DNA from: an uncultured Christensenellaceae bacterium | GTDB taxonomy: Bacteria; Bacillota; Clostridia; Christensenellales; UBA3700 | NCBI GenBank assembly: GCA_944383905.1 | Contig: CALWRI010000009.1 | Location: 1,339-65,338, forward strand | DNA: 64,000 nucleotides | Direction: 5' to 3' | Shown here: positions 25,905 to 29,654 of the stretch, one piece after another | How the letters are laid out: each line of letters begins with the position of its first letter | How positions within the stretch are numbered: the first letter of the stretch is position 1 | Notes under the pieces: model-generated | What the model was told of the DNA's origin: nothing | Database searches by the model: none | What the model saw: only the letters and a program-made list of their open reading frames with translations | Translations under genes and position numbers: made by a program

Positions 25905-25936
25905 CCAATAAACATAACGAAACGATTGTTTAATAT
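25905..25936 (+). promoter_or_regulatory. Putative ECF-dependent promoter, copy 1
   Basis: CCAATAAAC-12 bp-TTGTTTAATAT directly upstream of the ECF gene; identical motif and spacing at 28129. Confidence 0.75.
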
Positions 25937-25954
25937 TTGAACAGGGAGAGGGAT

Positions 25955-26470
25955 TTGGATAAAAAAGAATTAGACTTGTGCCTGCAGGAGGTCGCAAGGG
26001 GAGACAACGCCGCTTTCGAAAAACTGTACGCAGAGACGAGAAAAGGAATATTCGCTTTTCTTTACGGGTTTTGCGGCAACTACCATACGGCGGAGGATCT
26101 GACGCAGACGGTATACCTGAAGGTCAAGGCGAACGTAAGCAAATACAAAGCGGGAACGGACGCGAGAGCGTGGCTGTTTCAGATCGCGAAAAACACGGCG
26201 CTCAACGAGATAAAAAAGAACAAGCGCGAAGTGATCGCGACAGACGACAACGGCGCGTTTGCGGGGTCGTACGAAATGCAGGATTCGCCGGTATTCGACG
26301 CGATAAACACCGTGCTCGACGAAAAGGAGAGACAGATAGTGATAATGCATATTTTGTGGGGCTTCAAGCACCGTGAAATTGCCGATATGTTATCCCTCGC
26401 GCTGGGAACCGTACTTTGGAAATACAATGCAGCGATAAAAAAACTGCAAAATAAATTGAGGGAGGGCTGA
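25955..26470 (+). CDS. ECF RNA polymerase sigma factor
   Basis: Probable start TTG25955 after RBS GGGAG (ORF open from 25937). AEDLTQTVYLKV, WLFQIAKNTALN, GFKHREIADMLSLALGTVLWKY. Confidence 0.9.
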   Translation: MDKKELDLCLQEVARGDNAAFEKLYAETRKGIFAFLYGFCGNYHTAEDLTQTVYLKVKANVSKYKAGTDARAWLFQIAKNTALNEIKKNKREVIATDDNGAFAGSYEMQDSPVFDAINTVLDEKERQIVIMHILWGFKHREIADMLSLALGTVLWKYNAAIKKLQNKLREG

Positions 26471-26473
26471 GCT

Positions 26474-27868
26474 ATGGACGAGAAAGAACTCAAACGACTG
26501 CTTGAAAAAGAGCTTGACAGTATTGCGCCTCCTATGTCCGAAAAGGTAAAGAAAGCGAAGATACTCACAGAGCCCGAACAGGCAGAGAAGAGTACGCAAA
26601 AGATAGATATAAGACCGACTGCGAGAAAGAACAGAGGGTTCGTTTTCGGCGCGATAGCGGCAGTGCTCGTGATAGCGATAGCGCTGTCGGTGATCCTTCC
26701 CGCCGCGCTCGGCGGAGGCGAAGAGCCGGTATTTGCGGCAGGTTATCTGCGAATGGATATCAATCCTTCGGTGGAATTCGTTTACGGCGAAGACATGAAG
26801 GTGATAGCTGTCAAGAGCGCGAATTCGGACGCCGACCTGCTCGTGACCGACGAGGTCAGAAAAAATGTCGTCGGCAAAGACGTCAACGAAGCGGCGGCAA
26901 TCGTCGCGGAAGAAGCGGGAAGACTCGGGTATATCGAACCGGACAAAGATAATGCCGTCAAGATAACCGTTGTCGGGAAGAACGACGACGACGTGTTGAA
27001 GCAGACGACGGTCGCCATAGAAAGCAACTTTATGCAAAAAGGCGTGCTTTGCGCGGTAGTGGCGGTCAAGGAGAGCACCGACTATCTCGCGGGACTTTAC
27101 GGCACGGCGGCGGACGATCTCAAAGGCGCGCTCGACAACGTCTGCGACAAGGCGGACGGATATTTCGAGCAACTCGCAAAGGAAAATACGGACAGCCTCG
27201 AAGAACTGCGCGCTTATTACGAAACCGAAGTGTTCGAATATCTGCGCGGTCTCCTCGAAGCGGAATGCGCAAAGATAACCAAGACCAGGACCCTTCTGCA
27301 CGAAGCGCAGAACGTAAACGACGCAATAAAGGATTACACCTTTGACAAGACGTTGCTCGTAAAGGATTACTGGGCGGTCGTCGAGACGGGAGACTGGCAG
27401 GAAGACGAACAGCTTGCTGCGCTGTGCAAAGAGATGAAGGAACTCCTTGACAAAGCGGCGGCGCTGCGCGACGACAAAGTCGACAATTCCGCGGAACTTG
27501 ATTTCCTCGTGTTCACATACGACGCGCTGATAGACGAAGAATGGATAAAAGACATCGGCAACGCGACGATAGACGAGCTCAAAAACAGCATGGACGTCAT
27601 CATCGACGCGCTCGAGGAAATCAATATCACGATAACGCAGGGCATAAGGGACGCGATCGCGAGCGTACCCGACAACGTCGGAGAATTCCTCGAAGGCACG
27701 CAAGCGGTCATCGACGGAATGAGAGAATCTCTCCGGGACGTATATTCCGATCTTTACGACGAGGAGAGAGAGGCTTTGTCGAGAGATGATTATGACGATT
27801 TCTATCTGCGCATAACTTCGGAATACGGTTCTCTCGAAGCGTATTGGGATTTTTGCAGACAGAACTGA
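26474..27868 (+). CDS. RsgI-like anti-sigma factor
   Basis: Short cytoplasmic N-terminus, TM helix GFVFGAIAAVLVIAIALSVILP, then YLRMDINPSVEF...N-DA (RsgI extracellular module) and an acidic helical C-domain. Confidence 0.8.
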   Translation: MDEKELKRLLEKELDSIAPPMSEKVKKAKILTEPEQAEKSTQKIDIRPTARKNRGFVFGAIAAVLVIAIALSVILPAALGGGEEPVFAAGYLRMDINPSVEFVYGEDMKVIAVKSANSDADLLVTDEVRKNVVGKDVNEAAAIVAEEAGRLGYIEPDKDNAVKITVVGKNDDDVLKQTTVAIESNFMQKGVLCAVVAVKESTDYLAGLYGTAADDLKGALDNVCDKADGYFEQLAKENTDSLEELRAYYETEVFEYLRGLLEAECAKITKTRTLLHEAQNVNDAIKDYTFDKTLLVKDYWAVVETGDWQEDEQLAALCKEMKELLDKAAALRDDKVDNSAELDFLVFTYDALIDEEWIKDIGNATIDELKNSMDVIIDALEEINITITQGIRDAIASVPDNVGEFLEGTQAVIDGMRESLRDVYSDLYDEEREALSRDDYDDFYLRITSEYGSLEAYWDFCRQN

Positions 27869-27946
27869 CGACGTCCTCGCAAGCAAAACGAACCGACAAA
27901 TCCATTAAGTGCTTTCAAAGCATGACATAAATATCCCCCTTATCTG

Positions 27947-27979
27947 AAAAAGGCGACCGCAGAGAGCGGTCGTCTTTTT
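27947..27979 (+). terminator. Intrinsic terminator
   Basis: AGGCGACCGC/GCGGTCGTCT stem plus T-run. Confidence 0.7.
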
Positions 27980-28128
27980 ACATCCGGAGAGGGCGGCAGA
28001 CCGCATTTCTCAAAGAAAAGCTGTAGTCGGCGGAGCGTTTCGGGAGGATAAGGGAAGAAAAGTCGGCTGTTTGTATATTGTTATACGGAAAAATATTTAT
28101 ACAAAAAATAAAAAAATTTTTCGCAAAT

Positions 28129-28160
28129 CCAATAAACGTCCCGTTTACGTTGTTTAATAT
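28129..28160 (+). promoter_or_regulatory. Putative ECF-dependent promoter, copy 2
   Basis: CCAATAAAC-12 bp-TTGTTTAATAT, same as 25905-25936. Confidence 0.75.
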
Positions 28161-28190
28161 ATGAACGAAATCCAAAAGGAGGATGTCAGT

Positions 28191-29654
28191 ATGAAAAAAA
28201 TCAGCGCGATTTTAGCGGTAGTCATCACGGCGGTATTGCTGTGCACCGCGTTTGTGGGTTGCGTGAACGCCGACGAGGGCAAGACATACGTCAGCATGGA
28301 CATCAATCCGTCGGTCAACCTTGTTATCGACGGTAAGGGCAAGGTCGAATCCGTCGAGGCGGCAAACGAAGACGCCCAGATAATGCTTTACGGCGAAGCG
28401 GTCGTGGGCAAGACGGCGGAGGAAGCGTTCGAACTCATTGCAAAACTCGCGGTTGACTGCGGTTATCTGACCGAGGAGAACAGCGGTATCAATGTCACGG
28501 TAGTGGCGGGAGACGGTTCCGCAAAGACGGAGGCAAACATCGGTAAACTTGTCGAAACCACGTTTGCGGCAGAAGCGGAAAAAGCAAACATAACTGTCAA
28601 TATCAACACGGGCGCCAGTTTTTCGCTCAACAGACAGTTTGAATACGCAAAGGGCAAGTACCCCAACGTCAGCGCTGTTCAGAATATGTCCATCGGCAAG
28701 TTCAAGCTCGTGACCGAGCTCGTTGCCAACGACGACGGCATCACCTTCGAGTATGCGGCTACCCTCGACGAAGAGGATCTGATCGCAAGACTCAACAAGT
28801 GCTATGAGAAGATCGAGCCGTACGCTACCGAGGCATACAAGGCAGCTGTTGCGGAGGCAAACGAAATCTTCGACATCGCCAAAGTTACCGCGGAAGGCAC
28901 TGCATGGACGGCATATTACACGCTCAACGCGCTGTCGCATCCTTACAATTACGGCGCAGCATATTCGGCTTACAGCATAGCGGCGGTCTCTCTCGACTAT
29001 ACTCTCGACAAAATCGAGCAGATAAGAAATCTTGCCGATCAGGCGCTTGCAGATGTCGACACCCAGAAGATAGCGGACGCGCTCGGCGTTGAAAAGAGCG
29101 AAGTGGACGCTGCGATCGTCGACGAAAACGGCAACGTCACTCTCGAAAGCATAGACGCTTATATCGACAGGACGATCAAGAACATGAGCGCGGAGGCTTA
29201 TCAGCAGATCAAGGACGAGCTGCCCGAACTCGAAGCGTACATCGACGGTATGCAGGCGGAAGTCGAAGAATTCATCAACACGCTTCCCGAAGAGTACGCA
29301 ACCGCAATCAACGACATCATCGCAGACGTCAAAGTGCTCGGCGGAGACATAGTCGATTTCGTTGCAAGCCTCGGAGATCTGACCGTTGACGACGTCAGGA
29401 GCGTAGTGACCTACCTCGAGAACAAGCGCGACGAAGCCATAGCGGACATCGAAGCGGATCTCGACGACAAGGAACTTGCGGCTGCTAAAGAGTACGTCAA
29501 GAGCGCAAACGACCTGATCACTTCGGCACAGAACGTCTACAACCAGACTCTCGAGATGGCGAAGAAGGAAGCGGAAGAATTCCTCGCGCAGGCTAAAGAG
29601 GGCAGATTCCAATGGCAGCATCAGCACGGACAGGAAGAGGACGTTCAGGCGTAA
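28191..29654 (+). CDS. Lipoprotein with an RsgI-like extracellular domain (paralog of the anti-sigma ectodomain)
   Basis: Start ATG28191 (RBS AAGGAGG); lipobox FVGC; YVSMDINPSVNL...ANEDA; acidic helical C-terminal part. Confidence 0.8.
   Translation: MKKISAILAVVITAVLLCTAFVGCVNADEGKTYVSMDINPSVNLVIDGKGKVESVEAANEDAQIMLYGEAVVGKTAEEAFELIAKLAVDCGYLTEENSGINVTVVAGDGSAKTEANIGKLVETTFAAEAEKANITVNINTGASFSLNRQFEYAKGKYPNVSAVQNMSIGKFKLVTELVANDDGITFEYAATLDEEDLIARLNKCYEKIEPYATEAYKAAVAEANEIFDIAKVTAEGTAWTAYYTLNALSHPYNYGAAYSAYSIAAVSLDYTLDKIEQIRNLADQALADVDTQKIADALGVEKSEVDAAIVDENGNVTLESIDAYIDRTIKNMSAEAYQQIKDELPELEAYIDGMQAEVEEFINTLPEEYATAINDIIADVKVLGGDIVDFVASLGDLTVDDVRSVVTYLENKRDEAIADIEADLDDKELAAAKEYVKSANDLITSAQNVYNQTLEMAKKEAEEFLAQAKEGRFQWQHQHGQEEDVQA

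Follow-up and report, generated by a model that had tools for sequence, protein, structure and literature searches.

Three adjoining genes on the forward strand of a 64,000-nucleotide stretch of DNA from an uncultured Christensenellaceae bacterium (contig CALWRI010000009.1 of assembly GCA_944383905.1, hereafter the window) encode an extracytoplasmic function (ECF) sigma factor, a single-pass anti-sigma candidate and a lipoprotein, and the last two carry homologous copies of the RsgI-type periplasmic domain known as SEAL (Table 1). The cassette is best explained, and in our judgement probably so, as a three-gene ECF signalling unit on the RsgI/SEAL principle, operating by the mechanism proposed below, and the lipoprotein gene is very probably a direct, conserved target of the window sigma. 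Close homologues were found in Candidatus Ornithoclostridium and in Christensenellaceae. The host genome is a 1.69-Mb Christensenellales metagenome-assembled genome, and counts given for the genome cover this whole assembly. No published description of an ECF/SEAL/lipoprotein cassette was found in literature searches.

The sigma factor matched Sigma70_r2 (E 8.7e-14) and Sigma70_r4_2 (E 4.4e-6) in Pfam, with the Sigma70_r4_2 and r4 matches spanning residues 126-171, and the only NCBIfam model it passed was that of the ECF superfamily, TIGR02937 (70 bits, cut-off 42.9). All 44 sigma factors adjoining related SEAL proteins were also of ECF type and matched TIGR02937, and the SigI model TIGR02895 was absent from the top 25 families of the window sigma and of these 44 relatives. 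No SigI scored over the TIGR02895 cut-off anywhere in the host genome. The RsgI_N domain (PF12791) had no match in the window anti-sigma or in 39 family members and none over the cut-off in the genome, and the anti-sigma family profile did not match the solved RsgI N-domains. Membership of the SigI/RsgI group was accordingly rejected both for the sigma, which has a region 4, and for the cytoplasmic part of the anti-sigma, which lacks RsgI_N. An earlier note, made from the letters of the stretch, had taken the partner for a short ECF-type sigma and not a SigI, and this assignment stands. Since the sigmas are ECF-type and RsgI_N is missing, the SEAL module is here joined to another sigma class and to another, short cytoplasmic segment. 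The TTG at 25937 listed as the sigma start was rejected because it falls within the promoter motif described below; the likely start, TTG 25955, lies 20 nt past the motif behind the ribosome-binding site AGGGAGAGGG and is kept in all genus members. Position 25905, at which the earlier note began, was taken as the motif's first base.

The anti-sigma candidate follows the sigma gene in an order conserved in 45 loci, the window pair being 3 nt apart and predicted to be cotranscribed and translationally coupled, and has one transmembrane helix. Its AlphaFold2 (AF2) model (predicted local distance difference test, pLDDT, 83) displayed an N-terminal helix (residues 3-17), a disordered linker, the transmembrane segment (58-79), a beta/alpha domain (90-262) and long helices after it, which gives a SEAL domain of about residues 85-262 followed by an acidic helical domain (263-464). 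The heptapeptide MDINPSV occupies residues 94-100 within an RsgI_M match (PF23750; residues 90-197, E 2.5e-16), the family profile matched RsgI periplasmic-domain chains (E 1e-12), and the top Foldseek matches of the model were 8T9N and 8HDJ (probability 1.0), with a target template modelling (TM) score of up to 0.78 to 8T9N. The numbering of the hairpin, N97-P98, is that of the mapped RsgI cleavage site (PMC10556640, PMC10328401), and the residues around the RsgI scissile bond (D95, N97-P98, S99, N117 and D119) were all present at the same numbers; the model has Asn-Pro in the turn joining two strands. Neither zf-HC2 nor another zinc-finger anti-sigma domain was detected in the window protein or its 39 relatives, in which only the N-terminal helix 3-17 was conserved on the cytoplasmic side. 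An M50 site-2 protease (188 bits) is encoded in the host genome.

A second ECF sigma/SEAL anti-sigma pair of the same architecture was detected on contig C1 of the host genome at about 149.6-151.6 kb (locus L006, 722-2478), with the hairpin LIDINPSFEIV, a very acidic helical tail and no lipoprotein neighbour. It was rejected as a further case of the twin design: its candidate promoter differs (GGAAAC-N15-CGTTTGAA) and has no second genomic copy, and no lipoprotein adjoins it.

The third protein begins with MKK, a hydrophobic stretch and the lipobox FVGC, whose Cys24 (codon 28260-28262) did not vary among 17 close members and was kept by at least 90% of 51 members. Lgt (LGT, 150 bits) and LspA (Peptidase_A8, 94 bits) are encoded in the host genome. 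Translation is taken to start at ATG 28191, which is conserved and has a GGAGG ribosome-binding site 8 nt ahead of it, and the ATG at 28161 was rejected for lying within the promoter motif. The signal peptide is followed by a 7-residue linker, an RsgI-type periplasmic domain (28-214) and a family-specific acidic helical domain (215-487), the latter almost confined to proteins of about 500 amino acids and found there at the same position. MDINPSV lies at residues 36-42, within an RsgI_M match over residues 32-138 (E 2.3e-20). The AF2 model (pLDDT 90, predicted TM-score 0.82) placed Asn-Pro in the turn between strands beta1 (32-37) and beta2 (41-46), and the family profile matched 8HEP_B (E 2e-17) from the Pro of the Asn-Pro bond onwards. 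All ten top Foldseek matches of the model were RsgI periplasmic domains (probability 1.0), with target TM-scores of up to 0.71 to 8T9N. The residues of the RsgI site are D37, N39-P40, S41, N59 and D61 in this protein, and N39, P40 and S41 were invariant across 51 family members of 20-77% overall identity.

Homology between the two ectodomains reaches far beyond the heptapeptide. BLASTP aligned the anti-sigma and the lipoprotein at 35% identity over 108 amino acids (E 3e-11), and profiles of the two families (51 lipoproteins and 39 anti-sigmas) aligned over 182 columns (hhalign probability 99.8%, E 1.2e-30), pairing residues 28-224 of the lipoprotein with 85-269 of the anti-sigma. Both profiles matched the solved periplasmic domains of Clostridium thermocellum RsgI1, 2, 6 and 9 and the Bacillus subtilis SEAL domain (8HEP, 8HER, 8HEQ/8HDJ, 8U9O and 8T9N), and the alignments to the RsgI structures start at a Pro, the residue with which the deposited C-terminal cleavage fragment opens. 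The beta1 strands of the window pair are also alike (GYLRMDIN and TYVSMDIN). Two readings of the earlier note stand: an RsgI-type module with MDINPSV in both proteins, borne out by PF23750, the PDB profiles, Foldseek and the neighbouring conserved Asp, Ser, Asn and Asp, and a lipoprotein that, by its signal peptide, lipobox and model, has no cytoplasmic or transmembrane signalling part. Its statement that both proteins share a similar acidic helical domain held for composition only. The two distal regions consist wholly of helices and are acidic (pI 4.1; net charge -36 and -29), but hhalign of the C-terminal sub-alignments gave a probability of 3%, and homology of these domains was rejected as a compositional likeness. 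Matches of the distal domains to apolipoprotein A-I and other helical-repeat proteins (PDB, Pfam) were likewise set aside as amphipathic-helix bias, and Foldseek gave no significant fold match for these domains.

The sigma and lipoprotein genes of the window are both preceded by the stretch CAATAAAC-N13-TTGTTTAAT-AT(T/A)TGAAC, from which the consensus CAAYAAA-N14-YGTTTAAT was taken, with the reversed motif as control. The AAC/AAT - 17 nt - YGT geometry is that of ECF promoters. In the genome the strict motif occurred in exactly three copies, against none for the control, and the lipoprotein gene was the only non-regulatory target among these sites. When two mismatches were allowed, 15 genomic matches were obtained against 17 for the control, and a wider regulon was rejected as noise. 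A scan of 82 related loci (910 kb; spacing of 11-15 nt allowed) gave 65 matches, of which 25 preceded sigma genes and 38 SEAL-lipoprotein genes; of the two left over, one again lies ahead of a sigma, whose open reading frame is over-extended. The spacing was 14 nt in 64 of the 65 matches, including all 25 ahead of sigma genes, and 15 nt in the remaining one. The downstream, -10-like element opened with the same base, C or T, in both promoters of every within-locus pair. The other genomes of the same genus (14/14) each carried one to three copies, ahead of the sigma gene, the lipoprotein gene or a third target, with no control matches, and the distance from the end of the motif to the start codon in genus members was 20 nt for the sigma and 25-31 nt for the lipoprotein. 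We infer that the window sigma recognises this shared promoter, and the duplication of the promoter at the window and at dozens of distant loci argues that the lipoprotein is a direct, conserved member of its regulon. The description of the lipoprotein as sigma-induced in the earlier note is supported by these findings, and so far as promoters reveal it the gene is under the control of this sigma.

The third exact copy lies outside the window, at C8:64489-64517 of the host genome (L003/L108, 1501-1529). In four genomes of the genus (G000, G011, G013 and G014) the copy is found 196-262 nt upstream of the same gene for a 68-residue XRE-family HTH_3 protein, with a sigma-A-like TATAAT promoter and a conserved CTACAGCAAAGCGTTGTA element in the interval. 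Directly after this copy the host genome has a ribosome-binding site and an 18-codon open reading frame. No XRE gene turned up within the related triad loci. The one here may be a third member of the regulon.

Some further forms of the promoter were noticed. In a subclade of the genus (G003, G010, G004 and G008; loci L115 and L117, and L113 and L105/L120) a conserved sequence of about 30 nt, ACACTCTTTC..AAACC.AATTCCC, stands after an additional copy of the motif and could be a small RNA or a leader. The next feature is in some cases a GH95-like gene; in others the lipoprotein's own promoter follows about 210-260 nt further downstream, the two promoters then standing in tandem. In other clades the variants CCAATAAA...GTTTATT and CCAACC...TGTCTTA precede the lipoprotein gene.

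A scan of species-representative genomes gave 369 relatives of the lipoprotein, and 80 loci were kept for gene-order counts. The order sigma-anti-sigma-lipoprotein was found in 35 loci, lipoprotein-sigma-anti-sigma in 9 and a divergent sigma/lipoprotein arrangement in 4, so that sigma, anti-sigma and lipoprotein genes lie together in at least 48 of the 80; 11 loci were on contigs too short to judge. As judged from sequence, conservation of the cassette, with both copies of the promoter, extends over Christensenellales and other gut Clostridia. At one locus (L007) the gene upstream of the lipoprotein resembled an anti-sigma in size and was rejected as an unrelated GH18 lipoprotein gene.

In a tree of the shared domain, lipoprotein and anti-sigma copies were separated (4 label changes against about 29 in shuffles), with longer branches on the anti-sigma side. 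This separation points to an old duplication followed by joint inheritance, and indicates that the SEAL domain of the lipoprotein ectodomain is an old, co-inherited paralogue of that of the anti-sigma. The hairpin D/N-I/V-N-P-S was present in 74 of 76 lipoproteins, and the Asn-Pro pair in all 76, whereas only 23 of 45 anti-sigmas had DINPS. Asn-Pro was lost in three anti-sigmas (L054, L060 and L063), and five further partners no longer scored as SEAL (L058, L061, L062, L065 and L071). Such partners have lost the hairpin or shrunk to about 220 amino acids (for example SSYVRISVESGGQ), whereas the adjoining lipoprotein retains DINPS. Decay of the hairpin in the anti-sigmas set against its retention in the neighbouring lipoproteins suggests that the lipoprotein depends more on autocleavage than the sensor does.

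Some SEAL lipoproteins stand alone, with no sigma gene within 3.5 kb or more, and form a subfamily (..SYVS.DINPS..VLD....SYSCEN) at L022, L024, L025, L027, L029, L032, L039 and L073. Its members have the variant motif CCAATAAA-N14-(A/G)GTTTATT as promoter and are presumably served by a distant ECF sigma.

The working of the cassette may be depicted as follows. By analogy with RsgI, the anti-sigma would cut itself at N97-P98 and the pieces would stay joined through the beta-sheet, until force or a ligand acting on the helical domain pulled the ectodomain off. The remaining stub of about 18 residues would then, again as in RsgI, allow the M50 site-2 protease to cut the transmembrane helix, by which the sigma would be freed to transcribe its own operon, the lipoprotein gene and, in this genus, the small XRE regulator. 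The lipoprotein would also cut itself, at N39-P40, and its 448-residue ectodomain would be held only by strand pairing with the 16-residue lipopeptide C24-N39, making it a breakaway surface protein. More speculatively, the anti-sigma ectodomain could be a copy of the lipoprotein kept as a sentinel: anything that removes SEAL-tethered ectodomains from the surface would remove the sensor's too, and the lost lipoprotein would be replaced, in a shed-and-replace homeostat with built-in negative feedback.

Several observations weigh against this explanation. The cytoplasmic part of the anti-sigma, about 55 residues, had no match to any known anti-sigma domain (Pfam; model confidence moderate), and its binding of the sigma is deduced from gene order. 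Autocleavage of both SEAL domains is predicted from motif and fold, and RsgI8 of C. thermocellum is an exception to SEAL autocleavage (PMC10328401). At 17 of the 80 lipoprotein loci there was no sigma gene within 3.5 kb or more, and the strict motif is missing from most of the 17. The TTTAAT of the motif matches TATAAT in 5 of 6 positions and so resembles a sigma-A -10 hexamer, as would suit a sigma-A promoter that depends on an activator. The distal helical domains, finally, are without detectable homology; the stimulus may therefore differ between the sensor and the lipoprotein, and the idea of a sentinel copy is the weaker for it.

The fullest form of the scheme is a homeostat of the surface coat built from two paralogous SEAL tethers, with the lipoprotein as breakaway part and the anti-sigma as sentinel, in which a newly made lipoprotein ectodomain may also re-cap the sensor stub by exchange of a beta-strand. 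We put it forward tentatively, as possible but doubtful. Another role for the lipoprotein, as a sigma-induced decoy or feedback inhibitor that dampens signalling, is in our view unlikely. It could compete for the ligand or pulling partner, bind and stabilise the anti-sigma ectodomain, or, after cleavage, re-cap the exposed beta1 stub with its ectodomain and so block the site-2 protease. The homologous SEAL modules with their like beta1 strands and the one promoter type common to both genes would suit such a role. Precedents exist in RseB of the rpoE operon, which protects RseA, and in the lipoprotein CseA, which damps the Streptomyces sigE system. The distal domains, presumably the ligand-facing ones, are however unrelated, and many lipoproteins stand alone. 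Moreover the lipoprotein is the more conserved partner and has kept Asn-Pro even where the anti-sigma lost the SEAL hairpin, which is unexpected of a mimic and speaks against a purely passive decoy. That the only non-regulatory target is a paralogue of the sensor domain with the stricter hairpin favours shedding and replacement over a passive decoy.

The lipoprotein could instead be the true receiver of the signal, its release or conformational change exposing the anti-sigma to proteolysis, in which case it would be required for activation and not be just an output. The clades in which the anti-sigma has no Asn-Pro or no recognisable SEAL domain next to a lipoprotein with DINPS (L054, L058, L060, L061-L065 and L071) fit this view, as do the 9 loci in which the lipoprotein gene comes first, ahead of the sigma and anti-sigma genes and preceded by an ECF-like promoter. 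The window anti-sigma, however, has a complete, canonical hairpin of its own, and the second ECF/SEAL pair of the host genome manages with no lipoprotein partner; we regard a co-sensor as improbable. It is similarly hard to credit that the SEAL domains do not cleave and are structural juxtamembrane scaffolds, with a conventional site-1 protease to inactivate the anti-sigma and a lipoprotein that is a stably anchored envelope-stress protein. Single substitutions near the site do not abolish RsgI cleavage, so that conservation of the motif is an imperfect predictor (PMC10328401), and some anti-sigmas of the family without Asn-Pro are presumably functional. Against this stands the invariance of Asn-Pro-Ser in 51 lipoproteins at 20-77% identity, which argues for selection on the hairpin itself, and every Asn-Pro-bearing SEAL domain tested so far autocleaves, including two non-RsgI families (PMC10556640). 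Least probable of all is that the shared motif is an operator or activator site joined to a sigma-A -10 element (TTTAAT), with the lipoprotein co-regulated but not sigma-dependent: its near match to TATAAT and the third copy upstream of an XRE regulator gene are outweighed by a bipartite structure of rigid 14-nt spacing without dyad symmetry, a sigma-A -35 matched in only 1 of 6 positions, a position fixed at 20-31 nt ahead of start codons, and a motif that travels with the ECF gene across families and whose variants co-vary within loci.

The nearest known systems are the SigI/RsgI pairs of B. subtilis and C. (Acetivibrio) thermocellum (PMC9732909, PMC10556640, PMC10328401). The cassette shares with them a single-pass protein with a juxtamembrane SEAL domain, recognised by profile and fold and with the hairpin at the same numbers in the anti-sigma, an available M50 site-2 protease and an autoregulated operon. 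SigI consists of sigma2 and sigmaI-C without sigma4, and its promoters have an extended -35 (AAA / ACCCCC-like) and a -10 of CGWA (PMC4711584), whereas the window sigma is a two-domain ECF protein of 171 amino acids and its promoter, CAAYAAA-N14-YGTTTAAT, is not of the SigI type. The cytoplasmic part of about 55 residues lacks RsgI_N, a folded acidic helical domain takes the place of the disordered region or carbohydrate-binding module of RsgI, and a sigma-controlled lipoprotein paralogue belongs to the cassette.

SEAL-PepSY proteins without an anti-sigma domain or transmembrane segment exist (Brogan 2023, PMC10556640). Like the window lipoprotein they carry SEAL outside a complete anti-sigma, and non-RsgI SEAL proteins autocleave in E. 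coli. The window SEAL is instead lipid-anchored and fused to a family-specific helical domain, not to PepSY, and the lipoprotein gene lies next to an ECF sigma gene and has that gene's promoter, the anti-sigma of the same sigma being a paralogue of the lipoprotein; in the text of Brogan 2023 (PMC10556640) no such genetic linkage or regulation is described. Autoproteolytic tethering with release of surface proteins has been proposed for MAIN (microbial GAIN) domains (Brogan & Rudner 2026 preprint, bioRxiv 10.64898/2026.05.12.724683). The concept is alike, here as a prediction: an autoproteolytic beta-hairpin domain beside the surface anchor and a large ectodomain held non-covalently and releasable by force. 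MAIN domains differ in a GAIN-like fold and a Ser/Thr nucleophile where SEAL has Asn-Pro, and MAIN proteins have not been reported as targets of paralogous sensors.

In the sigmaE-RseA-RseB system of E. coli and the sigE-cseA-cseBC operon of Streptomyces, in which cseA encodes a lipoprotein, an ECF operon or regulon encodes an extracytoplasmic protein able to feed back on the sensor, and activation proceeds by regulated intramembrane proteolysis. The cassette resembles them in having a possible feedback protein of this kind. RseB and CseA are not sensor-domain paralogues and do not cleave themselves, and site-1 cleavage is there performed by a separate protease, DegS, whereas the window lipoprotein is a paralogue of the sensor domain with predicted self-cleavage.

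SEAL autoproteolysis has so far been characterised only for SigI/RsgI. The present results indicate that a true ECF sigma, whose anti-sigma has an unrelated cytoplasmic segment, has recruited the domain, and that switches of this kind have as their main output a lipid-anchored paralogue dedicated to them. With two or three promoters of exact consensus the regulon is very small and clearly bounded, and this consensus offers a handle for annotating the ECF group and its regulon in metagenomes. The bacteria that carry it are uncultured and belong to the Christensenellales of the gut, a group with links to host health, and the cassette may serve as a model system for the trigger of SEAL dissociation, for the shedding and replacement of surface proteins by autoproteolytic tethers and for feedback by a sensor paralogue. 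If true, the homeostat would extend SEAL signalling from SigI to ECF sigmas, and would be the first single bacterial circuit to use one autoproteolytic domain both as mechanosensor and as regulated, releasable output.

Table 1. Positions of the cassette genes, predicted cleavage sites, promoters and hairpin in the window.
Feature	Positions	Strand	Support
ECF sigma factor, 171 aa, regions sigma2 and sigma4, TTG start	25955..26470	+	Sigma70_r2, Sigma70_r4_2, TIGR02937
Single-pass anti-sigma candidate, 464 aa	26474..27868	+	3-nt gap after sigma stop, RsgI_M, AF2, Foldseek
Anti-sigma hairpin D95-I96-N97-P98-S99; predicted scissile bond N97-P98 (codons 26762-26767)	26756..26770	+	
SEAL-domain lipoprotein, 487 aa, start ATG 28191	28191..29654	+	Lipobox, RsgI_M, AF2, Foldseek
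Lipoprotein hairpin D37-I38-N39-P40-S41; predicted scissile bond N39-P40	28299..28313	+	
Predicted promoter P1, ECF-type, autoregulatory: CAATAAAC-N13-TTGTTTAAT, then ATTTGAAC and ribosome-binding site AGGGAGAGGG	25906..25934	+	
Predicted promoter P2, second copy, ahead of lipoprotein gene: CAATAAAC-N13-TTGTTTAAT, then ATATGAAC	28130..28158	+	
Terminator-like hairpin GCGACCGC-AGAGA-GCGGTCGTC and TTTTT, between sigma/anti-sigma operon and lipoprotein gene	27953..27980	+	

The hairpin between the sigma/anti-sigma operon and the lipoprotein gene has A-runs upstream and T-runs downstream and could terminate transcription in both directions; the prediction had listed it for the minus strand only.

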